This document shows, piece after piece, positions 26,688 to 48,560 of a DNA stretch of 64,000 nt (positions within the stretch are counted from its first letter, which is position 1; every line of letters starts with the position of its first letter). The DNA is from Escherichia phage phiWec190. The position numbers were made by a program, and so were the translations under genes. The stretch is taken from sequence record LC739539.1, one strand, 5' to 3'. Under the pieces are notes generated by a model that was not told the origin of the DNA, ran no database searches, and saw only the letters and a program-made list of their open reading frames with translations.

Positions 26688-26765
26688 TTAAATCTCCTTT
26701 TGTTTAGTGAGATTGCATTCTATCAGAATACAACCTCGTGATCAAGACTTATTTGCAGATTAAGA

Positions 26766-27302
26766 TTATTCTCGGATAGGGCTGACAGTCAGATGCGCTT
26801 TCAAGATTTTCCACACACGATCTTGAGAGAAGGTATCTTGCGGAGAAGTGATCCCCGTATCAAACATAACTGCTAAACCGCCATCTACTTTCTGCCAGAT
26901 AGGAGGCTCACCAGAAGCGTCAGCACCGCCATAGACAAAGAAAGTGCCTTCTGGAATATCCCGCAGGAAGTAAAGCTTAGGTGGCTTCTCTGTGTAAGAG
27001 ATGGTATTCAATGTTCCCAATGTATTTGCCAGGTTGCTATCTGACCCACTCTCTTGGTAGTCACGGATTGCTTGCAAGTTGATAATAGAGTGGAACCAAT
27101 CTTCAGCAGTTTCCAAGCTACGTGGCGCTGGGTAGTAATCCAGGAAGTTGCTATCACCCCAACCGTAAGTTGTAACTGGGCCATGATTACGTGGATAGGC
27201 AGAATACAGGTTTAAGGTGCCATCCTGGTTCTGTGTCATGTATTGAGCATCGTCACGAAGCACACTAAGATCCATAACCATCGCATAGTCTAACAATTTC
27301 AT
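26766..27302 (-). CDS. hypothetical protein (178 aa)
   Basis: ORF track. Confidence 0.5.
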   Translation of the reverse strand: MKLLDYAMVMDLSVLRDDAQYMTQNQDGTLNLYSAYPRNHGPVTTYGWGDSNFLDYYPAPRSLETAEDWFHSIINLQAIRDYQESGSDSNLANTLGTLNTISYTEKPPKLYFLRDIPEGTFFVYGGADASGEPPIWQKVDGGLAVMFDTGITSPQDTFSQDRVWKILKAHLTVSPIRE

Positions 27303-27496
27303 TCTTTATCTCCTAAGTTTAAACAGTTTAAGAAGTCACGAAGGATAATCATTTGTTCTGTAGACAATGAGAGCACACCTTCACCATAAATATCACCAGC
27401 CCATTCAGCAGTAAGATCTAATACGCCAGTCCCAGGGAACCAATCCACAGTGATCCTATTACCATTCGAGTCGGGCAGTATACCATTAATTAACAT
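27299..27496 (-). CDS. hypothetical protein (65 aa)
   Basis: ORF track. Confidence 0.4.
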   Translation of the reverse strand: MLINGILPDSNGNRITVDWFPGTGVLDLTAEWAGDIYGEGVLSLSTEQMIILRDFLNCLNLGDKE

Positions 27497-27599
27497 AGCA
27501 CCTCCTCTATATTATGTTCTTGATCTTACGATCATCTAACGATAAGAACAAGATCTAAGTTTCTGTTCTTCGAACAATCTAACGATAGAAACTATAATT

Positions 27600-27670
27600 A
27601 CTACCCTCTACCCTAACGGGAGGGTAACACTTATACCTCGCTCCCGCTCGGCACTTCGTGGGTAGGGTAG
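27600..27670. other. GC-rich structured intergenic element (long imperfect stem enclosing internal hairpins)
   Basis: CTACCCTCTACCC...GGGTAGGGTAG outer arms, inner GGGAGGG/CCTCGCTCCC; within a 200 bp gap that also has direct repeats ATCTAACGATA(A/G)AAC. Confidence 0.35.
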
Positions 27671-27696
27671 CATACTTCGTATATCAAAGTCAACAA

Positions 27697-27993
27697 CTAT
27701 TTTAAATAATTCTCTATGCTGTCTGGATTGTAGATCGATCCGGTAGTTCCATCATAAAAGTGCAACAACCCTGTTTGGATAGTTACTGTGCGTGCAAGCT
27801 TTGTGCCACGGATGTAAGCATCCATTTCAGAGATACGGTTACGAAACTCTTTTAACGTGGCATCAAAGGCTGAATGAGGCATGTAGGCACGATTGATCTT
27901 GTTACGTTTAAAGCTACGGAAATCTTCGATCAAAAGATTACGTTGATTGTTAAATAGTTTGAGCAGTGTTTTGTGCATAGTGGTAAGGCTCAT
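27697..27993 (-). CDS. hypothetical protein (98 aa)
   Basis: ORF track. Confidence 0.45.
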   Translation of the reverse strand: MSLTTMHKTLLKLFNNQRNLLIEDFRSFKRNKINRAYMPHSAFDATLKEFRNRISEMDAYIRGTKLARTVTIQTGLLHFYDGTTGSIYNPDSIENYLK

Positions 27994-28199
27994 TTGTTAG
28001 TCTCCTCTTCATAAGTTGGTAGTTCATGATATGCGATCACAGGTGCCAAGTCAAAATAAAAATGACCATTGATAACAGCTATCGTGCCATTGCGTGTTTT
28101 GTTAACTTCACAGAATCCCTTCTTACCGTTTGCCATGATTACAAACCACTCTCCGACAGGAACATCCTCGGTGCCAGATACTTTAATCCATCCACTCAT
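27990..28199 (-). CDS. hypothetical protein (69 aa)
   Basis: ORF track. Confidence 0.4.
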   Translation of the reverse strand: MSGWIKVSGTEDVPVGEWFVIMANGKKGFCEVNKTRNGTIAVINGHFYFDLAPVIAYHELPTYEEETNK

Positions 28200-28456
28200 T
28201 TTACTTCCCCTTTGTAATCGGACACTATACCAGGTCTTACTTTTGCCTTAAGATGTTTCAACTCTGCCACAGGAGTTGCCACTTGTATAAGGTTAATAAT
28301 TTCAACCTCGTAGATAGTATACTCATAACCCGCATACTTCCCGATGGAATGCAGGTATTTGATAGCATGTTCAGGTGAATCTGCTTCAACATACCCCAAA
28401 TCTTTTGTAGTGCGGCCTTCACAGTCACCTTCTGTAGTTACGTGATAAAGTGTCAT
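28196..28456 (-). CDS. hypothetical protein (86 aa)
   Basis: ORF track. Confidence 0.45.
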   Translation of the reverse strand: MTLYHVTTEGDCEGRTTKDLGYVEADSPEHAIKYLHSIGKYAGYEYTIYEVEIINLIQVATPVAELKHLKAKVRPGIVSDYKGEVK

Positions 28457-28776
28457 AAAACCTCCTTCTTGTTGGCTGCTTCAATCATAGCGTTAAGAGT
28501 CTCCATACCGCTTTCAACTGCTTGAGCAATCTCTTGGAACACAGACTTCTTAAAGATGTATAAAGACCCTGCCTGTAAGCGTTGCACACAACATAAGATC
28601 GCTTGGTGATCCATCAGGAAGTCGCCGTAGGCTGAATCAATCTTACCTGTAATTGGGTTCTCTCGTGAACGAGGATCATACTCTAAAGTAATGTGTGTCA
28701 CGCCTGGTAAGGTAACAAACTGGCAGCGAATATTAACACGCGGTGCGATTGACACGCTAAACAGATTGTTGGACAT
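28453..28776 (-). CDS. hypothetical protein (107 aa)
   Basis: ORF track. Confidence 0.45.
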   Translation of the reverse strand: MSNNLFSVSIAPRVNIRCQFVTLPGVTHITLEYDPRSRENPITGKIDSAYGDFLMDHQAILCCVQRLQAGSLYIFKKSVFQEIAQAVESGMETLNAMIEAANKKEVL

Positions 28777-35738: not shown

Positions 35739-35847
35739 GGTGTCGCCCTTTCTTTGTTGTGCGCCCTGGTTGGCGCGGTAGAAAGATAATAGCCCTTTCC
35801 TTTATATATAGCAAGCAAAAAAGAAATGAAAAAGATTGAAAAAGTGG

Positions 35848-35904
35848 TTGACGTTCGCCAGGTGGCGGCGTACTATTCATCACGTAGGGCGGCAATGGTG
35901 CTGC
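35848..35904 (+). promoter_or_regulatory. cassette promoter plus leader stem-loop (copy 1)
   Basis: TTGACG 35848-53, 17 nt, TACTAT 35871-76, leader CACGTAGGGCGGCAATGGTGCTGC (stem 35889-35904). Confidence 0.6.
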
Positions 35905-35925
35905 TCACTATCTGGAGTTAAGATC

Positions 35926-36123
35926 ATGGCAACATTGCACATAGTAGCGAAAGCAGGACAAATCAACGTAGTGGTAAACGGCTTTACTGAATTTAGTCAT
36001 CCTCAAGATGATCATGAAACGGTGCTATCTTTCATTGATTCCCTGTTAGAAATGGGAGTCATTACAGAAGACCAACACGCTACTAAATCCGAACGTGTCC
36101 GCCGTATCGCGGGTGAAGAATAA
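35926..36123 (+). CDS. small hypothetical protein (65 aa)
   Basis: Track ORF trimmed to first Met after leader; RBS GGAG. Confidence 0.5.
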   Translation: MATLHIVAKAGQINVVVNGFTEFSHPQDDHETVLSFIDSLLEMGVITEDQHATKSERVRRIAGEE

Positions 36124-36129
36124 AAAGTA

Positions 36130-36190
36130 TTGACAATACGCAACAACCTGATAAGATGTATCACGTAGAGCGGCGGAATGGTCCACCGCT
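36130..36190 (+). promoter_or_regulatory. cassette promoter plus leader stem-loop (copy 2)
   Basis: TTGACA 36130-35, 16 nt, TAAGAT, leader GTAGAGCGGCGGAATGGTCCACCGCTC. Confidence 0.6.
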
Positions 36191-36213
36191 CACAACTAAG
36201 AGAGATTATCATC

Positions 36214-36486
36214 ATGGCATCATATAGCGCAACAATGATCGTAACTGGCACCACTGGCAAACCTATGAGCGGTGGCGGATCTTTCGCTAACATCAATATT
36301 GACGGGCGCTTATCCCTGGACGCAGCGATCGCCGTAGCGCGGGAAACATTTAAGAAAGAATGTAATTTCAACAAGCAAGATTATTTAGGTTTCGCTATTG
36401 AAAAAACCGCGCGCTTTGTGGATTATAAAAGCCCGAAAATGGTTGATACTACATTAACAGCAAGACAAGTAAACTTTTTGCTGTAA
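36214..36486 (+). CDS. small hypothetical protein (90 aa)
   Basis: Track ORF trimmed to MASYSATM... after RBS AAGAGAGA. Confidence 0.5.
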   Translation: MASYSATMIVTGTTGKPMSGGGSFANINIDGRLSLDAAIAVARETFKKECNFNKQDYLGFAIEKTARFVDYKSPKMVDTTLTARQVNFLL

Positions 36487-36496
36487 GGGGGCTAAC

Positions 36497-36757
36497 GTGC
36501 ACTTTCTTAAGGTATGCGGGAAGATCATAGCCTTTCGTAATGAGGAATTTTATAACCTTGCTCGTTATGTTATGATCTACCCTGGCAAGGTATATAAAAA
36601 CAGTCCGACAAGTTACACTATTTACAATGTGCTATCAGGTAAAACCACGGAGATCATAAAAGGAGGGGTGAGAGATTATCGTACATCTTTCTATCCTTGC
36701 CGTGATTCCGCCAGCTTATTTTTTGTGTGTGAAATGATTGTTAAAAGGGGTGTATAA
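36497..36757 (+). CDS. hypothetical protein (86 aa, GTG start)
   Basis: ORF track; RBS AAGGGGG. Confidence 0.45.
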   Translation: MHFLKVCGKIIAFRNEEFYNLARYVMIYPGKVYKNSPTSYTIYNVLSGKTTEIIKGGVRDYRTSFYPCRDSASLFFVCEMIVKRGV

Positions 36758-37314
36758 TGGGGCGCGAATATGTGATCCAGTCCTGGGTAAAACATGACGT
36801 TAATGATCCGCGCATTATACCGGACGACATGATCGATCATGCTCCTGGCTATAGTGGCGAGCAAGTAGGCAACAGATCGGCGCGTAGTCATGGGAATACC
36901 AAAACACGCAGCGATCGCCCTGGTTGGCTGGCAAATGGTAACGCTGACATTGCAAGCGCCGCAGATGATAGCGACGGCGCGAAAGATAATCCGCTGTACA
37001 AGGTAGATCCGGCTTTTCGTGTCCTGGATGAATACCCCAGCAAGATAGCGGCGCTTGATGCCGCGCTCGAAAGTAAGCGCATCACCTGGACGGCGTACAG
37101 TACTGCAAAAAGCGTATTAGATGGTAAGCTGATCCAAGCTGAAAGGAAATTGGCCAAAATTGCAGCCATAGCCCAGGAGGAAGACCAGGAAGAGGAAGAC
37201 GATCACGCGGTTGAGTGCATCACCTTTGATCACTTCCTTCCAGTCTTTGAGGCATCACAAGAAGAGAAGAAAGAAGCCGAAAAAAATTATCTTTATTTTG
37301 ATGATTTAGGTTGA
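36757..37314 (+). CDS. hypothetical protein (185 aa) with acidic C-terminus
   Basis: ORF track; stop/start overlap with upstream gene. Confidence 0.5.
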   Translation: MGREYVIQSWVKHDVNDPRIIPDDMIDHAPGYSGEQVGNRSARSHGNTKTRSDRPGWLANGNADIASAADDSDGAKDNPLYKVDPAFRVLDEYPSKIAALDAALESKRITWTAYSTAKSVLDGKLIQAERKLAKIAAIAQEEDQEEEDDHAVECITFDHFLPVFEASQEEKKEAEKNYLYFDDLG

Positions 37315-37368
37315 CAGGTAAAACGTGATCACTTATAGTTAACTCATAGGGCGGCAACGGTGCCGCTC
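37311..37368 (+). promoter_or_regulatory. cassette promoter plus leader stem-loop (copy 3)
   Basis: TTGACA 37311-16, 17 nt, TATAGT 37334-39, leader CATAGGGCGGCAACGGTGCCGCTCACAAC. Confidence 0.6.
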
Positions 37369-37388
37369 ACAACCGAAAGGATAGAAAA

Positions 37389-37472
37389 ATGTTTACTACT
37401 TCCCTGTTTTTTGCAATCAATTTTATTCCTGGTTTCCGTGCTGCACTTGAAATCATTCTTTGGACACTGTAA
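37389..37472 (+). CDS. micro-ORF hydrophobic peptide (27 aa)
   Basis: Hand-read MFTTSLFFAINFIPGFRAALEIILWTL right after leader and RBS AAAGGA; not in track. Confidence 0.4.
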   Translation: MFTTSLFFAINFIPGFRAALEIILWTL

Positions 37473-37479
37473 GGAAAAC

Positions 37480-37590
37480 ATGATGATCAAGAAAGAAAAC
37501 AGTTTGACAGTTGGAACGATTAACGCTATTATCTTGGTTGTTCCATTTTGGATCACCGTAGCAGTTATCACAACAATCATTTTCAAGTAA
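37480..37590 (+). CDS. micro-ORF membrane peptide (36 aa)
   Basis: MMIKKENSLTVGTINAIILVVPFWITVAVITTIIFK; in-frame tail of track ORF 37360..37590, whose annotated start lies inside the stem-loop. Confidence 0.4.
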   Translation: MMIKKENSLTVGTINAIILVVPFWITVAVITTIIFK

Positions 37591-37600
37591 GGGGCACACC

Positions 37601-37792
37601 ATGTTTAAAAATATCACTGGCAACGTAGCAACATTGAAAGCAGGTGACAAGGTAGAATTGCACCGGATCACAATGACAGTAGCGCACATTGAAAAAGTGC
37701 CACCGCATCACCGCAAGATCTCGCTAACTTGCAACAAGGGGCGTAACATTACCGCCACATTGCACGAAAAAGATAACGTAGTCATTCTATAA
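37601..37792 (+). CDS. small hypothetical protein (63 aa)
   Basis: ORF track; RBS AAGGGG. Confidence 0.45.
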   Translation: MFKNITGNVATLKAGDKVELHRITMTVAHIEKVPPHHRKISLTCNKGRNITATLHEKDNVVIL

Positions 37793-37802
37793 GGCGGACA
37801 CT

Positions 37803-38084
37803 ATGAGCAAGGTAATTAGTCACGAAAAACTAAGCCCTACCCTATCGATCAGTGAATGCAACGATGGTTATTGGCTATACGATGAAACGCGCGGCATGAA
37901 TTTATCGATGCAAGCGAAAACCGAACAAGCGGCATATGTGCAAGCCCTGGAATATTACCAGCGACGACTACAGGAAGTTGAGAACAATTATAAAAGCCTG
38001 AAATCAAAGGTTGATCACTTTATCAGCCAGGCGGCAGATGACGACGATGATCACTATTGCGAGCGGTGCGGATCATACAGTTAA
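37803..38084 (+). CDS. small hypothetical protein (93 aa)
   Basis: ORF track; C-terminal CERCGS. Confidence 0.45.
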   Translation: MSKVISHEKLSPTLSISECNDGYWLYDETRGMNLSMQAKTEQAAYVQALEYYQRRLQEVENNYKSLKSKVDHFISQAADDDDDHYCERCGSYS

Positions 38085-38092
38085 AAATATCC

Positions 38093-38154
38093 TTGACAAC
38101 GTTTCAAAAAGTAGTAAGCTGTATCACATAGGGCGGCGGAATGGTCCACCGCTC
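38093..38154 (+). promoter_or_regulatory. cassette promoter plus leader stem-loop (copy 4)
   Basis: TTGACA 38093-98, TAAGCT, leader CACATAGGGCGGCGGAATGGTCCACCGCTC. Confidence 0.55.
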
Positions 38155-38174
38155 AAAACAGAAGAGAGAATATC

Positions 38175-38420
38175 ATGAAACACTTATCATCTATCACCAA
38201 TCACAATGAAATCTTTGTTAATGAAAAAGGTTACGCCTGGATTCAGTTAAAAGAGATGAAAAATAACCGTCGTGTAACGGTTGTTCGTAAAATTAAAAGC
38301 AAGCCTTTTAGTAACTTCTCGATTGATACCGTGCGGATCAAGAATGAAGAATACTTGATCGATAGCCAAATCACTTGGAGCTTAACGGCATCAGCCGCCG
38401 CACCATATTTCGCAAACTAA
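38175..38420 (+). CDS. small hypothetical protein (81 aa)
   Basis: ORF track. Confidence 0.5.
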   Translation: MKHLSSITNHNEIFVNEKGYAWIQLKEMKNNRRVTVVRKIKSKPFSNFSIDTVRIKNEEYLIDSQITWSLTASAAAPYFAN

Positions 38421-38431
38421 GAAAAAAACGT

Positions 38432-38488
38432 TTGACACTGTTTAAAATTCTGTTATAGTTTATCACGTAGGGCGGCAATGGTGCCGCC
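38432..38488 (+). promoter_or_regulatory. cassette promoter plus leader stem-loop (copy 5)
   Basis: TTGACA 38432-37, 16 nt, TATAGT, leader CACGTAGGGCGGCAATGGTGCCGCC. Confidence 0.6.
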
Positions 38489-38509
38489 AACAATAAAAAG
38501 GTTATCATC

Positions 38510-38689
38510 ATGGCTATCATTGCAAAAACTGAAATCGTGGGCTTAGATTCCATTCTTCTGACATATAAGGAAACGTTAGGAATGTATGTAGTAACCTATG
38601 GGGATTATGTGCATGAATACGAATATATTGATCTTGCTTTCGAATGTTACATTCGTCAGGTCAATCAAGCCTATAATGATTATCGTTAA
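38510..38689 (+). CDS. small hypothetical protein (59 aa, not in track)
   Basis: Hand-read MAIIAKTEIVGLDSILLTYKETLGMYVV... Confidence 0.4.
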   Translation: MAIIAKTEIVGLDSILLTYKETLGMYVVTYGDYVHEYEYIDLAFECYIRQVNQAYNDYR

Positions 38690-38708
38690 AAGTTTTAGTC
38701 TTGTGCTA

Positions 38709-38761
38709 TTGACAATAGGCGATAGTACAAGCATAATAACTTTTATCGGGAATACTTCCCA
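38709..38761 (+). promoter_or_regulatory. cassette promoter with variant leader hairpin (copy 6)
   Basis: TTGACA 38709-14, 17 nt, CATAAT 38732-37, hairpin GGGAA-TAC-TTCCC. Confidence 0.5.
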
Positions 38762-38786
38762 CTAACCAAAAAGAGAGAGTAAGAAC

Positions 38787-39152
38787 ATGGCTAAAAATAT
38801 CAATGTGTCCGCTTATGCTACCCTGGCTAACACTGCTAAAATCGAACTATCCAGCATTGAAGCAGTGCACATTAGCGCCCGTCGCTGGTTTCAACAGTCC
38901 TACGGTAATACATATTTTTCTTTAAGTGTGGACGTCGAGATCTGCGGTAAATTGATTGAAGTGGTTAACGTTCCGTTTCAATATGGCTATGGTGATCATT
39001 TTGATACCGTCGCCCTGGAAGAATTTAGCAAGGTTATCAACCTTGAAGGCAAAGAATTTTCACGCGGCAGCTATCTTTCCCGTTTTTGCCGTGACAATGG
39101 GATCGCTGTATACAGTCATGCAAGCGATGTTAAGCGTAAAAAAGATTTATAA
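38787..39152 (+). CDS. hypothetical protein (121 aa)
   Basis: ORF track. Confidence 0.5.
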   Translation: MAKNINVSAYATLANTAKIELSSIEAVHISARRWFQQSYGNTYFSLSVDVEICGKLIEVVNVPFQYGYGDHFDTVALEEFSKVINLEGKEFSRGSYLSRFCRDNGIAVYSHASDVKRKKDL

Positions 39153-39158
39153 AAGACG

Positions 39159-39220
39159 TTGACAGCACGAATAAAAAGAGTAAACTGTATTACATAGGGC
39201 GCGGGAATAGTTCCCGCCCC
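39159..39220 (+). promoter_or_regulatory. cassette promoter plus leader stem-loop (copy 7)
   Basis: TTGACA 39159-64, 16 nt, TAAACT, leader ACATAGGGCGCGGGAATAGTTCCCGCCCC. Confidence 0.6.
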
Positions 39221-39241
39221 ACTCAAAGAGAGATTAACATC

Positions 39242-39481
39242 ATGGCTAAATCAAAAATGTTCTTAGGTCACAAAAATAAAAATCATTGGAATGTAAGCCT
39301 TTGGATTAACAACGATGAATCATTGTATCGGTTGGCCCTGGACTTTATTAACGATAGCACTAATCGCAATGATGCGGCCCGTCATATGATGCTATTTTTA
39401 CAAGAGACTGGACAAGATAAGACTCCAGACGGTTTCAAATATAGCACTACTGCGATCCGCGCCGCGATGGTCGGAATGTAA
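39242..39481 (+). CDS. small hypothetical protein (79 aa)
   Basis: ORF track. Confidence 0.5.
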   Translation: MAKSKMFLGHKNKNHWNVSLWINNDESLYRLALDFINDSTNRNDAARHMMLFLQETGQDKTPDGFKYSTTAIRAAMVGM

Positions 39482-39490
39482 TAAAAACAG

Positions 39491-39548
39491 TTGACAACGT
39501 TTTAAATTAGTGTAAGATGTATCACATAGGGGCGACAAGCGCCCCGCC
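39491..39548 (+). promoter_or_regulatory. cassette promoter plus leader stem-loop (copy 8)
   Basis: TTGACA 39491-96, 16 nt, TAAGAT, leader CACATAGGGGCGACAAGCGCCCCGCC. Confidence 0.6.
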
Positions 39549-39568
39549 TAACAGAAGAGAGAAAAATC

Positions 39569-39796
39569 ATGGCTATCAATATTGTTCGCGTATCCGGCAC
39601 CGTTGGCACTTCCCAGGTTATAGCCGTTGTAACAAATAAAAAGATTAATGATGTATGTGAGATCTTGAATAAGTGGGCTATTGCTAATTTTGGGGAATAT
39701 GCGAGCGTTGAGTACATCGAATCTTATCAGGTGCCAACCATCAGCCTGACCGATCTCAACGTTGATCGCCTGTTATGCCTGGACGAATTAATCTGA
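39569..39796 (+). CDS. small hypothetical protein (75 aa)
   Basis: ORF track. Confidence 0.5.
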   Translation: MAINIVRVSGTVGTSQVIAVVTNKKINDVCEILNKWAIANFGEYASVEYIESYQVPTISLTDLNVDRLLCLDELI

Positions 39797-39805
39797 AAAA
39801 GATTG

Positions 39806-39862
39806 TTGACACGGGAAAGAAAAAGAGTAAACTGTATTACGTAGGGCGGCAATGGTGCCGCC
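39806..39862 (+). promoter_or_regulatory. cassette promoter plus leader stem-loop (copy 9)
   Basis: TTGACA 39806-11, 16 nt, TAAACT, leader ACGTAGGGCGGCAATGGTGCCGCC. Confidence 0.6.
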
Positions 39863-39881
39863 AGCAAGAAGAGAGATTATC

Positions 39882-40097
39882 ATGATGGCTAATATCCGCA
39901 CACTGTTAAAAAATGCAAGTCGAGTTTTATTTTCCGATCACGATTATTTCAATAAAGACATTACAGGCGTTAAGAACATCAAAGATGTAAAAAGTGTTAT
40001 GGGTATATATTGCAATGTGAAACGTGTTGGAACTTTTAGCAACAAGGTAGTATATCAGGCAGGGGATTACAATTTTACACTAACAATCTTAAATTAA
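39882..40097 (+). CDS. small hypothetical protein (71 aa)
   Basis: Track ORF trimmed to MMANIRT... after leader. Confidence 0.45.
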   Translation: MMANIRTLLKNASRVLFSDHDYFNKDITGVKNIKDVKSVMGIYCNVKRVGTFSNKVVYQAGDYNFTLTILN

Positions 40098-40100
40098 AGC

Positions 40101-40162
40101 TTGCAATCCCCATAAAATAAAGTAAACTGTATTACATCAAGGCGGCGGAATGGTCCACCGCC
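40101..40162 (+). promoter_or_regulatory. cassette promoter plus leader stem-loop (copy 10)
   Basis: TTGCAA 40101-06, 16 nt, TAAACT, leader ACATCAAGGCGGCGGAATGGTCCACCGCC. Confidence 0.55.
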
Positions 40163-40186
40163 TAACAAAGAGAAGAGGAAAACATC

Positions 40187-40354
40187 ATGATTACTTTTAC
40201 TACCCGTGAAGCCGCTCGCAACGTTGCACGTAAAGTTAACGCCGCCAACCTGGGCGCTACGCTTAAAGCCCCTGTAAAAGATACATCAGGCGCGTGGATC
40301 TTCCCTGGTCTGCGTCATGCTGATAACTTGGGCACGTTAAGCCGTAACAAATAA
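40187..40354 (+). CDS. small basic protein (55 aa, not in track)
   Basis: Hand-read MITFTTREAARNVARKVNAANLGATLKAPVKDTSGAWIFPGLRHADNLGTLSRNK. Confidence 0.4.
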   Translation: MITFTTREAARNVARKVNAANLGATLKAPVKDTSGAWIFPGLRHADNLGTLSRNK

Positions 40355-40368
40355 GGTTAGCCCTTCGT

Positions 40369-40396
40369 AATAGCGCCCCGCTCAATAGGCGCTATT
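40369..40396 (+). other. intercistronic 9-bp-stem hairpin
   Basis: AATAGCGCC-CCGCTCAATA-GGCGCTATT, immediately upstream of RBS for 40435. Confidence 0.45.
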
Positions 40397-40434
40397 GAGA
40401 AGAGAAACCACTTATCACAAAGAGAGAAAACATC

Positions 40435-40656
40435 ATGATCACTTTCGCTATTGTCGCCGTTGTCGCTGGTCAAGTTTACGTGAACGATACATTCACCACC
40501 GAAGACAAAGCAGCAGGAGATATCACCGCCGCTTATAACGAGTGCAAGGAAGTAGGAAGGATGTTAGCGCCTTGCTTCCTTATGAGTGAACGCCAGGACG
40601 GGATCACGGTGTTTACTAACATTGAAACAGGATATCAAATGATAGTAGAAAAATGA
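40435..40656 (+). CDS. small hypothetical protein (73 aa)
   Basis: ORF track. Confidence 0.45.
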   Translation: MITFAIVAVVAGQVYVNDTFTTEDKAAGDITAAYNECKEVGRMLAPCFLMSERQDGITVFTNIETGYQMIVEK

Positions 40657-40718
40657 TTGACAAGTTTTAAAAATCCGGTAAGATGTAACACGTAGGGCGG
40701 CAATGGTGCCGCTCACAA
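40656..40718 (+). promoter_or_regulatory. cassette promoter plus leader stem-loop (copy 11)
   Basis: TTGACA 40656-61, 16 nt, TAAGAT, leader ACACGTAGGGCGGCAATGGTGCCGCTCACAAC. Confidence 0.6.
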
Positions 40719-40733
40719 CAGAAGAGAGACACC

Positions 40734-41087
40734 ATGAAAGCACAAAATGCAATTAAACTTTATATTCTGGCCTCAATTGATTATAGCGAGTATAGCATCA
40801 CAGAAGAGAAAGAGAAGATCGCGGAATTGATGCGACGTTTTAAGAATGAGTACTGGTATCCCTATAACCAAGAATACTACAATCATAACGTTATCAGAGC
40901 AATAGCCTCATGGTTACAAGGTTTACCGTCAGATATCAATATCGCTTTCGAATATTGGGAAGTAGATCGGTTGTTAACATCCTGGGGATACATTAGCGAG
41001 CGTAGCAGCGAAAGCAAGATCCAGAAAGAAAGGGAAAACTATTGGCTATACCTTGCAGGAGTGATCCTTGCACTTTCCCACGAATAA
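40734..41087 (+). CDS. hypothetical protein (117 aa)
   Basis: ORF track. Confidence 0.5.
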   Translation: MKAQNAIKLYILASIDYSEYSITEEKEKIAELMRRFKNEYWYPYNQEYYNHNVIRAIASWLQGLPSDINIAFEYWEVDRLLTSWGYISERSSESKIQKERENYWLYLAGVILALSHE

Positions 41088-41103
41088 AAAGTTTTAAAAG
41101 TAG

Positions 41104-41165
41104 TTGACAGGCATCAAACAATAAAGTAAATTTAAACACGTAGGGCGGCAATGGTGCCGCTCACA
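41104..41165 (+). promoter_or_regulatory. cassette promoter plus leader stem-loop (copy 12)
   Basis: TTGACA 41104-09, TAAATT, leader ACACGTAGGGCGGCAATGGTGCCGCTCACAAC. Confidence 0.55.
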
Positions 41166-41183
41166 ACAAAAAGAGGAAACATC

Positions 41184-41330
41184 ATGAATACATCTAATCG
41201 CGCCGAAAAAATCCAATCTTCCAAAACTCGCGCAGCGTGGAATGAAGAAGTGGTCCGCAAGGGCGACAAGCGCAACAAGACTAAGCGCGACCGCACCGAT
41301 AAACGTGCATGGCTGGACCTGGAAGACTAA
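41184..41330 (+). CDS. small highly basic protein (48 aa, not in track)
   Basis: Hand-read MNTSNRAEKIQSSKTRAAWNEEVVRKGDKRNKTKRDRTDKRAWLDLED. Confidence 0.4.
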   Translation: MNTSNRAEKIQSSKTRAAWNEEVVRKGDKRNKTKRDRTDKRAWLDLED

Positions 41331-41338
41331 CAAAACAA

Positions 41339-41361
41339 GGGCGCAAATAGCGCCCTTTCTT
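41339..41361 (+). terminator. rho-independent terminator
   Basis: GGGCGC-AAATA-GCGCCC then TTTCTT. Confidence 0.6.
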
Positions 41362-41386
41362 ATATCTAACGAGAGGATAACAGCAC

Positions 41387-41572
41387 ATGACCTTAAACGA
41401 GATTAAAACCGCCTACAACGCAACGAACAAAGTAGCAGCCCGTTACCGCGACGAATACGGATTTATTGCGCAAGGCGTGATCCTGGGCTTATCTAATGAT
41501 GGTTTGATTTACATTGATGCTTATCATAACCAGGTTAAACCTGAAAATGTTATCAGTATAAAATATCTTTAA
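41387..41572 (+). CDS. small hypothetical protein (61 aa)
   Basis: ORF track; RBS GAGAGGA. Confidence 0.45.
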   Translation: MTLNEIKTAYNATNKVAARYRDEYGFIAQGVILGLSNDGLIYIDAYHNQVKPENVISIKYL

Positions 41573-41578
41573 AAGTGG

Positions 41579-41638
41579 TTGACACCATAATCAGACCTGA
41601 TAAGATGTATCACGTAGGGCGGCAATGGTACCGCGCTC
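41579..41638 (+). promoter_or_regulatory. cassette promoter plus leader stem-loop (copy 13)
   Basis: TTGACA 41579-84, 16 nt, TAAGAT, leader CACGTAGGGCGGCAATGGTACCGCGCTC. Confidence 0.55.
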
Positions 41639-41654
41639 GTTTGAGGATCAAACT

Positions 41655-41939
41655 ATGGTTAAAGCTAACACGGTGCTACTGTTTTCCCTGGTTAATGATG
41701 CCGCTTACTTGTCCAACATGACGCAAGATGATAGCACATTAACGGCAACGTTTACCGATGGACTTAACCGAGTGATCATCGTTTCACTGAAAACAGGGAG
41801 TAAAGGCTTTTACTCGTTGGCTTATCATTGGGTAACAGACAGCGACGAGACAAGCCAGGACTATAGCGCCCCGTTCCCTGAATCAATGGCACGGGAGATC
41901 ATCGCCGCCGTTGTAAACGATGGTTTATTTACTGCATAA
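41655..41939 (+). CDS. hypothetical protein (94 aa)
   Basis: Track ORF trimmed to MVKANTV... Confidence 0.45.
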   Translation: MVKANTVLLFSLVNDAAYLSNMTQDDSTLTATFTDGLNRVIIVSLKTGSKGFYSLAYHWVTDSDETSQDYSAPFPESMAREIIAAVVNDGLFTA

Positions 41940-41958
41940 AAATAATTTAGAAAAAGGT

Positions 41959-42020
41959 TTGCAATCATTTTGAGATAGTGTATATTTAATTCATAGGGCG
42001 GCGGGAATAGTTCCCAAAGC
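41959..42020 (+). promoter_or_regulatory. cassette promoter plus leader stem-loop (copy 14)
   Basis: TTGCAA 41959-64, 16 nt, TATATT, leader CATAGGGCGGCGGGAATAGTTCCC. Confidence 0.5.
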
Positions 42021-42038
42021 AAGCGAGAGGATAACACA

Positions 42039-42158
42039 ATGAACAAATACACAGTAGAATACACGGTAGAGAATCCGGCAGTATCCGAAGGGCGTAAGAC
42101 TACGATCGCCGTTGGTGTTATCGCTTTCGTTATCACTATCTTATCAATCATCTTATAA
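42039..42158 (+). CDS. micro-ORF membrane peptide (39 aa)
   Basis: Hand-read MNKYTVEYTVENPAVSEGRKTTIAVGVIAFVITILSIIL; C-terminal TM helix. Confidence 0.4.
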   Translation: MNKYTVEYTVENPAVSEGRKTTIAVGVIAFVITILSIIL

Positions 42159-42168
42159 GGTGCACACC

Positions 42169-42348
42169 ATGAAAACAGTAAACGTTATCAGATCATCAAA
42201 CATCATTAAAGAGATCGCCCTTGCCACTGGTATTGAGATCGAGGAAGTGATCGCGCTCAATCTTACAGAAAACGATCTGCGCAACTATGAAGCGGAAAGC
42301 GTGAAAGCAAGTGGCGCGGTCCTGGCATATAATCCGGCTAACAAATAG
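42169..42348 (+). CDS. small hypothetical protein (59 aa)
   Basis: In-frame tail of track ORF 42112..42348 from MKTVNV... Confidence 0.4.
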   Translation: MKTVNVIRSSNIIKEIALATGIEIEEVIALNLTENDLRNYEAESVKASGAVLAYNPANK

Positions 42349-42408
42349 TTTGACAAGCTGAATCAACCTGATAAGATGTATCACATAGGGGCGACAAGCG
42401 CCCCGCCT
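42349..42408 (+). promoter_or_regulatory. cassette promoter plus leader stem-loop (copy 15)
   Basis: TTGACA 42349-54, 17 nt, TAAGAT, leader CACATAGGGGCGACAAGCGCCCCGCC. Confidence 0.6.
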
Positions 42409-42428
42409 AACAGAAGAGAGAAAAAATC

Positions 42429-42707
42429 ATGACCATCGTTAAATTAACAACCGAAGAAATGAAAACAATGTTAACCACTAATTTACAAAATTGGAAAATT
42501 GGTGTTGACGTTGAAACAGTGTGCAAGTTGAACGACAAACTAACACCGGACGACATTGAAACGATCATCCGTGCAGATTTCTATGATGCTTTATACGATG
42601 ATTCCACAGTCCTTGAAACGATGTTGGATAACGCTTGGATCAATCCCGATTTGGCGGCTTATGGTCATCTTGCCTTTGAAGCCATCCATAATGTTTATAA
42701 TCGTTAA
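42429..42707 (+). CDS. hypothetical protein (92 aa)
   Basis: ORF track. Confidence 0.5.
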   Translation: MTIVKLTTEEMKTMLTTNLQNWKIGVDVETVCKLNDKLTPDDIETIIRADFYDALYDDSTVLETMLDNAWINPDLAAYGHLAFEAIHNVYNR

Positions 42708-42717
42708 GGGGGATAAC

Positions 42718-42849
42718 ATGAATCCGAAAGATATGCAAGCATGGAAAGGGTACGACGATCTAAGCGCCTTGCGCAATAAGTCAAGCCGTAACCTTAGACG
42801 GTTGGAAGCAAAGAAAAAGAAAAATATTAAGGGGGTGCACCATGTATAA
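42718..42849 (+). CDS. small basic protein (43 aa)
   Basis: In-frame tail of track ORF 42556..42849 from MNPKDMQAWKGY..., RBS AAGGGGG. Confidence 0.35.
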   Translation: MNPKDMQAWKGYDDLSALRNKSSRNLRRLEAKKKKNIKGVHHV

Positions 42850-43069
42850 CAATATCATTGCAGATCGTGCCGCTACTATTCGCCCAGGAGATCGGGCGCG
42901 TTTACAGGTTGGCGTTTATCCGTTCCCGTCTTATGACTTCTGCAAGGTAACGGCTATCGAAAACAATCCGTTTGATCCTGACACCGTGATCATCTGGTAC
43001 GAAGGAAGGGGAAACAGATATGAAGATATCTTGGGGCGTGATGAATCCGTAAACATTTTACGCTATTAA
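42842..43069 (+). CDS. small hypothetical protein (75 aa)
   Basis: ORF track. Confidence 0.45.
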   Translation: MYNNIIADRAATIRPGDRARLQVGVYPFPSYDFCKVTAIENNPFDPDTVIIWYEGRGNRYEDILGRDESVNILRY

Positions 43070-43202
43070 CAGCCTGTAAGCTGTACGGCTGTATTACAGC
43101 CTAAAAGGTGTAAGGCAATGCAATCCCCTACCTGATTTAATTAGTGCGCCCTGGCTTATACTGGGGCGTTATACATTGTAGAAAATAATTTTAAAAATAT
43201 GC

Positions 43203-43263
43203 TTGACGCCTGGAACGTTGGCGCGTATAGTTTATCACATAGGGCGGCGGAATGGTCCACCGC
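43203..43263 (+). promoter_or_regulatory. cassette promoter plus leader stem-loop (copy 16)
   Basis: TTGACG 43203-08, 17 nt, TATAGT, leader CACATAGGGCGGCGGAATGGTCCACCGC. Confidence 0.6.
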
Positions 43264-43283
43264 AAAACAGAAGAGAAAACATC

Positions 43284-43469
43284 ATGACTACTTACAAGAA
43301 AACGAAAGAATTGGTAAAAGGCGATCTGGTTAGAAATATCCTGAATGGTAAGTTTTATGCAATGGTATCTATTGAACGTTATCAAACTGGTTACATTGTT
43401 AAACTTGATAGTCGTGACGATGGTTGCGAGTTTTACACTGAATATAATGATCGTCACATAGTCAAATAA
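43284..43469 (+). CDS. small hypothetical protein (61 aa)
   Basis: Track ORF trimmed to MTTYKKT... Confidence 0.45.
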   Translation: MTTYKKTKELVKGDLVRNILNGKFYAMVSIERYQTGYIVKLDSRDDGCEFYTEYNDRHIVK

Positions 43470-43480
43470 ACCATAAACCA

Positions 43481-43497
43481 GGGGCGACAAGCGCCCC
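43481..43497 (+). other. intercistronic hairpin GGGGCG-ACAAG-CGCCCC
   Basis: Same hairpin as in leaders of copies 8 and 15, here without a promoter. Confidence 0.45.
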
Positions 43498-43517
43498 ATA
43501 ACAAGAAAGGTAACAAG

Positions 43518-43700
43518 ATGAAAAAGATTGATTCTTCCCGTGTATTGTGTGAAATTGATGTTATCATCGGCAACGGCACCGGACACCATAAACTGATTAA
43601 GGGTAAGGCTTATCGCCTGGCAACGCTCAAAGCAGATATGCGCCTAACAGCAAGCCAGATCAAAAAGTTTTTTCGCCCCTTGTTGACAACAGCAAAGTAA
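43518..43700 (+). CDS. small basic protein (60 aa)
   Basis: ORF track. Confidence 0.45.
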   Translation: MKKIDSSRVLCEIDVIIGNGTGHHKLIKGKAYRLATLKADMRLTASQIKKFFRPLLTTAK

Positions 43701-43740
43701 GCGCGTAGTATTCATCTTGTAGGGCGGCAATGGTGCCGCC
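43683..43740 (+). promoter_or_regulatory. cassette promoter plus leader stem-loop (copy 17)
   Basis: TTGACA 43683-88 (inside 3' end of previous gene), 17 nt, TAGTAT, leader TTGTAGGGCGGCAATGGTGCCGCC. Confidence 0.55.
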
Positions 43741-43758
43741 GATGGTGAGGGTAATATA

Positions 43759-43896
43759 ATGAAAACTTTCAATGCAACAGCCTCGACAATTGGTTATATT
43801 ATTACAGTGCAAGCCGTGGACCTGGTAGCAGCAGCAAACAAGATTAAAAGAATGATCCCGCCAGGTAGTGAATTTTCCGTTTGGGAAGTAAAATAA
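43759..43896 (+). CDS. small hypothetical protein (45 aa, not in track)
   Basis: Hand-read MKTFNATASTIGYIITVQAVDLVAAANKIKRMIPPGSEFSVWEVK. Confidence 0.4.
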   Translation: MKTFNATASTIGYIITVQAVDLVAAANKIKRMIPPGSEFSVWEVK

Positions 43897-43898
43897 AT

Positions 43899-43961
43899 CT
43901 TGACAGTATTTTGTTTTCTGGTAAAGTGTATCACGTAGGGCGGGGCAATAAGGCAACGCCC
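43899..43961 (+). promoter_or_regulatory. cassette promoter plus leader stem-loop (copy 18)
   Basis: TTGACA 43899-904, 16 nt, TAAAGT, leader CACGTAGGGCGGGGCAATAAGGCAACGCCC. Confidence 0.55.
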
Positions 43962-43979
43962 ATTAAAGAGGGTAGCATC

Positions 43980-44084
43980 ATGTTAGAGAAAATTTTCACG
44001 GTTGCAATAGTTGGCCTGGCGTTATCGGTTGGAGTGGTTGCAACTATGGCTAATATGATCCTATCTTCTCACGGTATCGGTTAA
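43980..44084 (+). CDS. micro-ORF membrane peptide (34 aa)
   Basis: In-frame tail of track ORF 43881..44084: MLEKIFTVAIVGLALSVGVVATMANMILSSHGIG. Confidence 0.4.
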   Translation: MLEKIFTVAIVGLALSVGVVATMANMILSSHGIG

Positions 44085-44094
44085 GGTGAAACAA

Positions 44095-44310
44095 ATGTTC
44101 ACGAACAAAGCAGGCAAAACGGAATTTTTACGCGGCTTACAAGTTGGTAAGCCTGAGATCTGGCATTGCAGCAAGTCCGCACATAACGAAATGAAAGACT
44201 TTACCGCATCGTTGCAACGTGTTAAAATAACTATCACGCAGAAAAAAGCCCTGATAGTGGCAGAAAACGAGATCCCACAGACCATTATCATAATTGAGCG
44301 CACATCATAA
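44095..44310 (+). CDS. small hypothetical protein (71 aa)
   Basis: Track ORF 44086..44310; ATG at 44095 has AAGGTG RBS. Confidence 0.45.
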   Translation: MFTNKAGKTEFLRGLQVGKPEIWHCSKSAHNEMKDFTASLQRVKITITQKKALIVAENEIPQTIIIIERTS

Positions 44311-44325
44311 TTTTATTTATATTGA

Positions 44326-44387
44326 ATAAATAGTATTGACACAGATCACCAGTGTGATAATATTTACCACGTAGGGCGGCAATGGTG
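44326..44387 (+). promoter_or_regulatory. cassette promoter plus leader stem-loop (copy 19)
   Basis: TTGACA 44326-31, 16 nt, TAATAT, leader ACCACGTAGGGCGGCAATGGTGCCGCTCACC. Confidence 0.6.
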
Positions 44388-44412
44388 CCGCTCACCATTT
44401 GGAGTTATAACC

Positions 44413-44814
44413 ATGAACATTACGATCCTTTCTTATACTGACGTTGTTAACATTGCTAAAACTTTCGGCGCTGAAGCCCTGAAATATGCGGTTTCCAATG
44501 GTAATCTGACAAAGGAACAATGCTACCTGATTGGAGGCTGTAAACGTTGGGCGGTGTCTCGCAACATTGAGATCGAAAACGTCAACGATGGCAACACTGA
44601 ATATAGTGTTGATGCCGTTTTCCAGTCGGTTGATTTAGGCGGGATCTATAACACTAATCTGAATGATGTGCGTATCGTTCGCACTGGTTTCGGTGCTTAT
44701 GATGTACCAGTCCGCGAAGCTATGGAGAAAGGTTATATTAATCCGACCATTTTAAATATGATCATGACTGAGACTAAACAGCGTAACGATGCACGGGCTA
44801 TCTTGGGCCTGTAA
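44413..44814 (+). CDS. hypothetical protein (133 aa)
   Basis: ORF track. Confidence 0.5.
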   Translation: MNITILSYTDVVNIAKTFGAEALKYAVSNGNLTKEQCYLIGGCKRWAVSRNIEIENVNDGNTEYSVDAVFQSVDLGGIYNTNLNDVRIVRTGFGAYDVPVREAMEKGYINPTILNMIMTETKQRNDARAILGL

Positions 44815-44834
44815 GTAAAAACTCCAAAAAACTA

Positions 44835-44896
44835 TTGACACGGATCGTCAATATGATAATATTTACCACGTAGGGCGGGAATAGTTCCCGCTTCCT
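44835..44896 (+). promoter_or_regulatory. cassette promoter plus leader stem-loop (copy 20; near-duplicate of copy 19)
   Basis: TTGACA 44835-40, 16 nt, TAATAT, leader ACCACGTAGGGCGGGAATAGTTCCCGC. Confidence 0.6.
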
Positions 44897-44914
44897 GGAA
44901 AAAGGTAAAACATC

Positions 44915-45160
44915 ATGTACCAGACAACTAAAATTGGCAATATCTACCACGACCCGAAAAATTCGCGCGGTATGGCTTGGATCAAAATGCCTAACAACAT
45001 TTGGTATTATGCGTTAAAAGGGAATACTTTGATGGGTAATCGTTGGACCTGGATCAAAGAGAATAACAACATTATCAACGATGAAAAAATCAGCGAAATG
45101 GTAGCAACAGGTAAGGTTGTAAAGGAAGAAAACACCGATCGCGTAACGCGTCAATTCTAA
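44915..45160 (+). CDS. small hypothetical protein (81 aa)
   Basis: ORF track. Confidence 0.5.
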   Translation: MYQTTKIGNIYHDPKNSRGMAWIKMPNNIWYYALKGNTLMGNRWTWIKENNNIINDEKISEMVATGKVVKEENTDRVTRQF

Positions 45161-45163
45161 AAA

Positions 45164-45178
45164 GGGCGGCAACGCCCC
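45164..45178 (+). other. intercistronic hairpin with GCAA tetraloop
   Basis: GGGCG-GCAA-CGCCC between stop of 44915..45160 and RBS of 45200. Confidence 0.45.
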
Positions 45179-45199
45179 ACTATCAGAAAGGAAAAGATT

Positions 45200-45424
45200 A
45201 TGAGTATTGTTAGAATGTTACAAGCTATTAAACTGGCTGAATTGTCGGATCTCAAGGTAGAAATAACTGAATATGATTATGGGGATCTAAGCGTGCATAT
45301 CTTCCCGCTTCCAGTTGATGGCGCTTATGCCTGGTGCTATGCTGATAACTTCCCGCCGGATGACACAAAGGGCGTAACTGACTTTATTTTAAAGTCGATA
45401 GTAGAAAACAGCCAACGTAATTAA
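45200..45424 (+). CDS. small hypothetical protein (74 aa)
   Basis: ORF track. Confidence 0.45.
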   Translation: MSIVRMLQAIKLAELSDLKVEITEYDYGDLSVHIFPLPVDGAYAWCYADNFPPDDTKGVTDFILKSIVENSQRN

Positions 45425-45429
45425 TCAGC

Positions 45430-45445
45430 GGGGCGGCAACGCCCC
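45430..45445 (+). other. intercistronic hairpin with GCAA tetraloop
   Basis: GGGGCG-GCAA-CGCCCC upstream of 45476. Confidence 0.45.
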
Positions 45446-45475
45446 ATTAAACGCAATAGGAAGAGGATAGACAAC

Positions 45476-45766
45476 ATGAAAAAGATGATCGCAGTAGTTG
45501 CCCTGGTTGTTGGTATTAACGCGCCTGTAATGGCTAACGATTTGCCTGAATCGATCACGTTAACCGATATCAACGCAGTAAACCGGATCGGGGTTAATTA
45601 TCGCCTATGCCTTGCCGCTAAAACTTTTAAGGACGGGGAAACAGAATACCACGGATTCGAGGGTGTCCGGTGCGGTGAGCTTGCACGCGACCTTAAGGAA
45701 GATCCAGACCTTGAGGCCATACCGATGACCGTAAACGGTAAAGCTTACGTAAACCGCCAACAATGA
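45476..45766 (+). CDS. secreted/periplasmic protein (96 aa)
   Basis: Signal peptide MKKMIAVVALVVGINAPVMA. Confidence 0.5.
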   Translation: MKKMIAVVALVVGINAPVMANDLPESITLTDINAVNRIGVNYRLCLAAKTFKDGETEYHGFEGVRCGELARDLKEDPDLEAIPMTVNGKAYVNRQQ

Positions 45767-47896: not shown

Positions 47897-47924
47897 GGGG
47901 CGCACTAAGCGCCCTTTCTTTTTG
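47897..47924 (+). terminator. strong rho-independent terminator closing the array
   Basis: GGGGCGC-ACTAA-GCGCCC then TTTCTTTTTG. Confidence 0.7.
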
Positions 47925-48039
47925 TCCAAATAATGTTGATAGCTTCCGCCTATGAAAAACCGACACAGAACAAAAATGAATAAATCGCGGTATCGAGCTA
48001 ATCAACCAGCAAACGAATAACCATACCTCCCAGGGCAAC

Positions 48040-48420: not shown

Positions 48421-48463
48421 AGACTGTAATAATTGTAAAATGAATCATTCCAAGCCTCATCAT

Positions 48464-48496
48464 TAGCACGCTACGCCGGACACGTAGCGAGCTAAT
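48464..48496. repeat. 13-bp-arm hairpin/palindrome
   Basis: TTAGCACGCTACG-CCGGACA-CGTAGCGAGCTAA (one mismatch). Confidence 0.5.
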
Positions 48497-48560
48497 AATA
48501 AGCCAACTACACCCCCACAATCATAACTATCGGTGATAGTTATTTCTTGTGATTATGTAG

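Follow-up and report, generated by a model that had tools for sequence, protein, structure and literature searches.

A candidate internal promoter and structured 5′ leader in a conserved intergenic gap of Escherichia phage phiWec190

Escherichia phage phiWec190 is represented here by a window of 64,000 nucleotides (nt) from record LC739539.1. The subject of this analysis is a 200-bp intergenic gap at positions 27497–27696 of that window, which appears to hold a conserved promoter and a structured untranslated leader, both read from the minus strand. The gap interrupts a run of small minus-strand genes without known function; the run begins ~1.7 kb upstream of it, at a divergent junction, and extends to a DNA helicase gene and past. 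The gap separates an upstream open reading frame (ORF) of 98 aa (27697–27993, minus strand; TAG stop at 27697–27699) from a downstream ORF of 65 aa (27299–27496, minus strand; ATG at 27494–27496). Most neighbouring genes abut or overlap and no ORF of at least 40 aa lies within 27497–27696, in agreement with the first-pass annotation, which had singled out the gap as unusual in a tightly packed block. Only ORFs of 21 aa occur within the gap, and relatives do not conserve them; the one at 27608–27673 is reduced to three codons in the alignment. Across 26700–28500 the window is 100% identical to phage phiWec188 (LC739537.1; Phapecoctavirus, Stephanstirmvirinae), and the two are 99.95–99.99% identical overall. 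The features described below lie on the minus strand unless a strand is given.

The −35 hexamer of the proposed promoter, TTGACT (27688–27693), lies 4 nt past the TAG stop of the upstream gene and matches TTGACA at five of six positions. It is followed by an extended −10 element, TGc TACCCT (27664–27672), made up of the TG at 27671–27672 and the hexamer at 27664–27669. The two are 18 nt apart here and 17 nt apart in most relatives. These elements recur in a module (promoter, inverted repeat, and a short conserved “box”) of which 25 distinct variants from several genera were collected by scans of IMG/VR and metagenomes. In these relatives and paralogues, TTGAC-T is (nearly) invariant and the spacer varies in sequence while its length stays fixed at 17–18 nt; phage genera and chromosomal elements alike keep the TG and TACCCTA unchanged. 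The transcription start is predicted from sigma-70 geometry at 27655–27658, 6–9 nt past the −10 hexamer. From this pattern we infer a candidate sigma-70-type extended −10 promoter, which the host polymerase would use and which would start at ~27655–27658. Among the functions suggested for the gap at first pass, that of an internal promoter is the best supported.

The same promoter design stands at a divergent gene junction in the phiWec188 genome, where it heads a leftward tRNA-gene unit. A promoter is needed at such a junction, and this occurrence therefore supports the promoter signature. A sigma-32 reading of the −10 element presumably fails on spacing; C residues at −13 and −8, as in sigma-S-like promoters, are seen. 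A T-run/A-run inverted repeat in the spacer was considered as a hairpin and dropped, as it is not universal. The design resembles the sigma-70 extended −10 promoters of virulent coliphages such as rV5 in its TTGACT, its 17–18-nt spacer, its TGn, and the TAnnnT positions of the hexamer. For rV5, 33 consensus-like promoters were predicted, 11 of them with an extended −10 (PMC3606486). In contrast to those, the present promoter has an unusual and strictly conserved TACCCTA, and in every copy the box follows the −10 at a distance of 12–15 nt, most often 13 nt (as here and in 11 of the 25 variants).

Over the predicted start lies an inverted repeat, CAC-GAA-GTG (27652–27660), which reads CCC-GAA-GGG in phAPEC8-type phages and shows one compensatory C:G to A:U change. 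The repeat covaries across the 25 variants, the summed best stem being 84 as against 55.3 ± 3.1 in shuffled sets, none of which reached that value (0/2000). The box, C-CGAGC-GGGA-GCGAG-G (27636–27651), comes immediately after it, with a 14-nt CGAGC-GGGA-GCGAG core at 27637–27650. In its general form, CGAGC-GNNA-GCGAG, the stem sequence is invariant and the loop of 3–4 nt varies in both sequence and length. The full loop is GAA in 13 variants, GATA in seven, GCA in two, and GGGA and GAAT in one each. Base pairing in the box is supported by comparative data, in that the closing pair is C:G in 16 variants, A:U in eight, and another combination in one. The core reads GCGAAGC, GCGCAGC, GCGATAGC, or GCGGGAGC in 24 of the 25 variants, thereby conforming to the mini-hairpin motif GCGNAGC / GCGNNAGC; the exception is that of Citrobacter phage Tr1, with GCGAATGC. 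This motif occurs at the priming sites of G4, St-1, and alpha3, at ssiA of RSF1010, and in the early promoters of N4, and loops of the GNA or GNNA type closed by C:G are exceptionally stable in single-stranded DNA (PMC13037366).

Downstream of the box, the predicted leader contains two tandem stem-loops. Stem-loop A (27559–27592) has an outer stem GUUUC/GAAAC, a side hairpin AUC-GUUA-GAU (27577–27587), and an inner hairpin UGUUC-GAA-GAACA. Stem-loop B (27515–27550) has an outer stem UGUUCUU/AAGAACA, the same side hairpin AUC-GUUA-GAU (27534–27544), and an inner hairpin GAUC-GUAA-GAUC. The two constitute a 37-nt tandem duplication with 70% identity. Eight nucleotides past stem-loop B come the ribosome-binding site, GAGGAGG (27501–27507), and the ATG of the 65-aa gene. 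The direct repeats reported at first pass are the two side hairpins seen from the other strand. The plus-strand 11-mer ATCTAACGATA occurs exactly twice in the window, at 27534–27544 and 27577–27587, and a search allowing up to two mismatches returned those 2 matches where 0.33 are expected. The two copies are real, as first noted, but they are spaced 43 nt start to start rather than ~53, and the consensus given for them, ATCTAACGATA(A/G)AAC, lacks one base, the true copies being ATCTAACGATAAGAAC and ATCTAACGATAGAAAC. Additional matches to the repeat or to the GC-rich arms treated below (16430, 16601, 25595, 38814, 41364, and 48349) fall within coding sequence and were set aside as chance.

Pairing in the leader is likewise supported by comparison. 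Over ten distinct Phapecoctavirus rows, the proposed hairpins are 97.6% paired, with three compensatory and two G:C to G.U changes, and no pair of the leader hairpins is broken. Sliding the 3′ partners by 1–3 columns as a control leaves only 34–48% paired. All cells of stem-loop A are paired (100%), with two compensatory outer pairs and one inner G:C to G.U change; the same holds for stem-loop B, in which one C:G pair has become U.G. Beyond this genus, orthologous leaders in Citrobacter phage Tr1 and several metagenomic phages have a single long hairpin past the box, capped by CNNUC-GU(N)A-GANNG, and precede a different gene, one for a small membrane protein. RNAalifold assigns them 16 pairs, eight of them compensatory, together with two invariant U.G pairs. 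On the basis of these compensatory changes and invariant U.G pairs, the motif behind the direct repeats is taken to be a hairpin that acts as RNA. The direct repeats themselves derive from tandem duplication of one stem-loop, which is single in other genera.

The gap is also set apart by the type of its hairpins. Hairpins with at least three Watson–Crick pairs and a GNA or GNNA loop closed by C:G number seven on its sense strand and zero on the other, against a window mean of 0.09 per 200 nt. It is the sole cluster of at least four in the whole 150-kb genome, and five of the seven are retained in phAPEC8-type phages.

The gap is kept in ~70 Phapecoctavirus records, and in alignments of six and 11 sequences the −35, TG, −10, box, and ~95-nt leader are nearly invariant within the genus. 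Between phiWec188 and phAPEC8, identity is 88% in the leader, 83% in the downstream gene, and 60% in the upstream gene. The 65-aa gene is absent from phiWec179-type phages and from IMG/VR 3300014004_000001, in which the same leader is fused directly to the homologue of a 178-aa gene; that gene is itself replaced among close relatives. Since relatives lacking the 65-aa gene join the leader to the next gene, the leader belongs with the promoter and not with a particular gene. An IMG/VR scan for the two repeats at variable spacing recovered one true relative, the nine other loci being unrelated tandem repeats.

The reading favoured here, with a probability of about 0.6, is that, on the minus strand, a conserved internal promoter in the gap is followed by a structured untranslated 5′ leader acting in cis. 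Host RNA polymerase with sigma-70 would recognize TTGACT-18 nt-TGc TACCCT and start at ~27655–27658, supplementing the read-through transcripts of the divergent promoter region, which lies ~1.7 kb upstream. RNA made from the internal promoter would present, in order, the box hairpin, the two tandem stem-loops, and an exposed ribosome-binding site. The leader, most likely acting as RNA in cis, would then govern how stable the mRNA is or how it is processed, or bind a regulatory protein, and would thereby tune expression of the downstream gene block. RNase processing at the gap, one of the earlier suggestions, is possible. A promoter with a leader is ordinary phage gene control in kind. For the design, copy number, and spread of this module, no earlier description turned up in the literature searched, and querying it with the literal box and −10 sequences returned nothing of relevance.

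Structured 5′ leaders are known to stabilize or process phage and bacterial mRNAs, examples being the stem-loop at the 5′ terminus of ompA and, in T7 early mRNA, the RNase III sites. The present leader is similar in placing hairpins between the start and an exposed ribosome-binding site, and the version found in other genera, one ~16-bp hairpin with an internal loop, has the shape of an RNase III site. It differs in having ~6–9 unpaired nt before the first hairpin and, in Phapecoctavirus, short stems (4–7 bp). An independent gene for a small structured RNA, also put forward at first pass, is not supported: a promoter is present, no terminator follows, and the leader passes straight to the ribosome-binding site and ATG of a coupled ORF. 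Rfam 15, searched at gathering and permissive thresholds over the window and two further copies of the module, returned no family (best sub-threshold E = 2.9 and 5.4).

Several points weigh against the promoter–leader reading. TACCCT agrees with TATAAT only at T1, A2, and T6 (3/6), for which reason the promoter scan, which needs 4/6, omits the site, and the literature searched on phAPEC8, rV5, Phapecoctavirus, and Stephanstirmvirinae yielded no transcript data for this phage group. Of the covarying inverted repeat, the 5′ arm falls at −6 to −1 and so before the predicted start, and a pure RNA-leader model does not account for the repeat. The covariation within Phapecoctavirus is modest, as its three compensatory pairs trace to one lineage split. 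Folded by itself, the leader does not exceed shuffled sequences in stability (z = −0.65 in phiWec188 and −0.74 in phAPEC8), and it allows an alternative pairing of the 3′ arm of stem-loop A with the 5′ arm of stem-loop B, the two folds being inseparable on these data. Finally, the C:G-closed GNA and GNNA loops may have a role at the DNA level.

A GC-rich multi-stem structure of 77 nt (27598–27674) is superimposed on the promoter. Its outer arms, GGGTAGGGTAG (27660–27670) and CTACCCTCTACCC (27601–27613), and its inner GGGAGGG / CCTCGCTCCC pairing were all described at first pass and are all recovered in minimum-free-energy folds of both strands; with the 5′ arm taken as 27660–27671, the outer stem encloses an inner one formed by the box and an indel. 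The structure is very stable (−33.6 kcal/mol, z = −4.07, with 0/200 shuffles as stable). The indel, of ~22 nt (~27606–27627, boundaries dependent on the alignment), carries TAGGGTAG, which repeats the −10 region in inverted orientation, plus a stretch complementary to the box, and the multi-stem exists because the indel pairs back onto these two elements. The indel is found in five near-identical phages, phiWec188, phiWec179, phiWec181, phiWec186, and PsgM04F, and in one IMG/VR contig and is absent from the other Phapecoctavirus sequences aligned. As judged by that alignment, the multi-stem is a lineage-specific addition that most relatives do without. Conservation among relatives thus holds for the gap itself, the promoter, the box, and the leader, but not for the multi-stem, which is absent outside the phiWec188 lineage.

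The 5′ arm of the multi-stem is the −10/discriminator region, and transcripts born at the promoter would therefore lack it; for the same reason, either read-through RNA or single-stranded DNA would be needed for the full structure to form. As a conserved function, attenuation at this site, another early proposal, is not supported, as the structure is restricted to one lineage, has its 5′ arm over the −10 upstream of the predicted start, and has no U-tract after it. Of note, a perfect TATAAT lies beside the multi-stem on the plus strand (27,593–27,598), with a weak −35, TTCGAA, at an 18-nt spacer. The scan makes no call there, and an antisense promoter at this site is possible.

The module is present in three copies in the full phiWec188 genome. 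Copy 1 is that of the gap, at ~142.2 kb of the record (minus strand of the window). Copy 2 is an orphan on the plus strand (LC739537.1 104,545–104,800) within a 286-bp gap at ~104.5 kb. It points against both neighbouring genes, is followed by no convincing ORF or terminator, and contains a second box-like motif, CACGATAGGGAG; given its orientation and the lack of ORF and terminator, it may yield a non-coding or antisense RNA. Copy 3 (64,580–64,290, ~64.5 kb, minus strand) lies at the divergent junction mentioned above and heads a leftward unit with 11 tRNA genes. Its leader, of ~250 nt, is AT-rich and contains four GATC sites in 80 nt as well as a second TTGACT promoter. A fourth phiWec188 promoter shares the −35 and −10 without a box. 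In the IMG/VR and metagenome scans, the module again occurs in about three copies per ~150-kb genome, and to judge from these sequences it is spread across Stephanstirmvirinae at three copies per genome. The module is thereby kept across a subfamily of therapeutic-candidate E. coli and Klebsiella phages. Its make-up is unusual in that a strictly conserved but atypical −10 is followed by a box with an invariant stem, the variable bases being confined to the loop of a priming-site motif.

Equally unusual, bacterial chromosomes hold small integrative elements in which the same module stands next to the integrase gene. These were found in Citrobacter sp. OP27 (CP191518.1, locus L074 ~3,500–4,150, minus strand), two Buttiauxella assemblies, one Scandinavium assembly, and a 22.8-kb IMG/VR contig. 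In these elements the module immediately follows the integrase and precedes ~0.5 kb without coding sequence, then small genes, and then a gene of the primase/helicase type (DUF5906). The unit of the integrative elements is 91% identical to a Justusliebigvirus copy over 45 nt, and BLAST likeness between the chromosomal elements and the phage copies ends after ~45–55 nt. Its presence in chromosomal elements suggests that the module moves as a functional cassette. The elements are possible satellites of Stephanstirmvirinae phages; homologues of their proteins were not found in phiWec188. The ~0.5 kb of non-coding sequence holds GAA-capped covarying hairpins, and the small genes include an endonuclease VII-like one. 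Most of the 76 matches to a loose box pattern in the genome collection, by comparison, are chance hits in G+C-rich genomes.

A broader and decidedly tentative reading is that the ~50-nt module is a dedicated control element of Stephanstirmvirinae, acting either in replication, as a transcription-primed origin or a signal for priming, or in transcription, as the site at which a phage-made polymerase modifier loads. The Citrobacter, Buttiauxella, and Scandinavium elements would have copied it to switch on or replicate upon phage infection, and the hairpin cluster of the gap would be part of that machinery and not a plain leader. If the module is indeed a phage-specific switch or origin, it would offer a handle on the transcription and replication programme of rV5/phAPEC8-like phages and would point to possible satellites that exploit them.

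The first of these two forms, a replication or priming signal, is rather unlikely. The promoter would open the DNA or form an R-loop, hairpins on the displaced sense strand would resist single-stranded DNA-binding protein and mark sites of priming, and the three modules would be origins, analogous to the complementary-strand origins of G4 and St-1, ssiA of RSF1010, and the promoter-dependent origins of T4. In its favour, the box core fits the priming-site mini-hairpin motif in 24 of 25 variants (PMC13037366), the other hairpins of the gap also have C:G-closed GNA or GNNA caps, and all seven caps lie on one strand in a cluster unique in the genome. The start-site inverted repeat is not wholly inside the promoter's own RNA, copy 2 is an orphan promoter without an ORF that opposes its neighbours, and in the chromosomal elements the module stands between the integrase and the block with the primase/helicase-type gene. 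However, the leader hairpins have unchanging U.G pairs and have undergone G:C to G.U changes, both of which suit RNA and not DNA, and the likeness to the mini-hairpin DNA motif is one of sequence pattern. Copies 2 and 3 are without the hairpin cluster, copy 1 leads directly to a ribosome-binding site, and the GC skew tracks gene direction and gives no independent origin signal. To our knowledge, no primase or N4-type polymerase has been linked to this phage group.

The second form, in which a modifier of RNA polymerase would find its loading or pause site in the promoter-proximal box, is improbable. Such a factor would make polymerase resistant to termination in units that are long or untranslated, the tRNA cluster among them; RfaH at ops, lambda Q at PR′, and the nut and put RNAs offer parallels. 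The fixed distance from −10 to box (range 12–15 nt) in every copy would suit this role, as would the placement of the copies at the head of a long operon, a tRNA unit, and an untranslated transcript. The chromosomal elements would carry the module as P4 shares helper-responsive promoters. The likeness to ops extends to a short element in the leaders of long operons, read on the non-template strand, with a GCG-NN-AGC hairpin core, and the box matches ops (GGCGGTAGCGTG) at best at 9/11 positions in our own alignment. The positions of ops that are held critical are T6 and the TG of the pause. In the box, T6 and the pause TG are variable or absent: the best match of 9/11 falls short of the ops consensus GGCGGTAGnnTG, the equivalents of G5 and T6 lie in the variable loop, and T11 is A. 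Unlike ops, the box is only ~7–20 nt from the predicted start. A boxA-like U-rich element is lacking, the neighbouring proteins are without known function, and no NusG/RfaH-like or Q-like gene turned up, no search having been aimed at them.

Still less probable is that the direct repeats TATCGTTAGAT are double-stranded DNA operators at which a phage protein controls the internal promoter or downstream transcription. Two exact 11-mers set 43 bp apart, about four helical turns, would be apt for this purpose; the repeat sequence is nearly invariant in Phapecoctavirus, and its first copy is partly palindromic (TCTA-TCGT-TAGA). The repeats nevertheless lie 70–120 nt downstream of the promoter, and the motif occurs nowhere else in the genome. 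Moreover, the positions that vary are the two middle bases of the loop (GTTA, GGTA, GTCA), and in other genera the stems change by compensatory pairs while C-GU(N)A-G is kept, a pattern that is predicted by a hairpin and not by a fixed DNA site.

That the multi-stem or stem-loop B is an intrinsic terminator or attenuator between the two genes is hardly credible: WebGeSTer does call stem-loop B a terminator in the record of phage ASO2A (MZ726793), and the very stable multi-stem precedes a moderately U-rich stretch and could stop upstream transcripts while sparing those of the promoter, as only read-through RNA has both arms, but a terminator scan of both strands of 27497–27696 found none, stem-loop B, itself AU-rich, gives way to AAUAAUAGGAG and not to a U-run, and the multi-stem is absent in most relatives and is itself followed by UAAUUAUAGUUUCU, again with no U-run. 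The “terminator” in ASO2A is the one database annotation that the present analysis corrects.

The module also resembles the promoter-early stem-loop (PeSL) cassettes of T4-like phages, which are described as terminator/promoter composites present in many copies (PMC2839356, PMC4122927). The likeness consists of a short, repeated promoter plus stem-loop at borders of differing gene content. As in PeSLs, promoter and stem-loop are repeated, here in three copies per genome and in several genera, and the leader persists among phiWec188, phiWec179, and phAPEC8-type phages even where the flanking genes differ or are missing. In contrast to PeSLs, the number of copies is three and the stem-loop does not serve as terminator of the upstream gene, since the −35 lies 4 nt past the stop and all hairpins are downstream of the promoter, within the transcript.

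A separate array in the same window also resembles PeSL-type cassettes. At ~35,800–45,700 on the plus strand (124.2–134.1 kb of LC739537.1), there are sixteen near-identical early-type promoters (TTGACA, 16–17 nt, TAAGAT-like), each followed by CACGUAGGG, a G+C-rich hairpin, a ribosome-binding site, and a small gene. The hairpin stems covary (GGCGGCA/UGCCGCC, GCGGGAA/UUCCCGC, GGGGCG/CGCCCC). A 17th match of the array scan heads a tRNA gene outside the window. Within the array, window positions 42,434–43,232 (~800 bp) are without counterpart in the phiWec188 record, where positions 127,476–127,528 stand instead; the stretch was collapsed in assembling the record, or else a genuine indel separates the two sequences.

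Pfam and PHROG searches with seven neighbouring proteins returned families of unknown function only, and a scan for tRNA and transfer-messenger RNA genes had no match in the window or in module copies 2 and 3. A stretch of ~1.5 kb at 121,301–122,883 of LC739537.1 (window ~47,900–49,500) is without an annotated gene in the phiWec188 record. Phapecoctavirus sequence is found in three genome-collection assemblies labelled Proteobacteria or Lysobacteraceae, probably owing to phage contamination of bins. Near-identical phages have also been deposited as Pseudomonas, Campylobacter, and Acinetobacter phages (e.g., OR584014.1 and MG065650.1).

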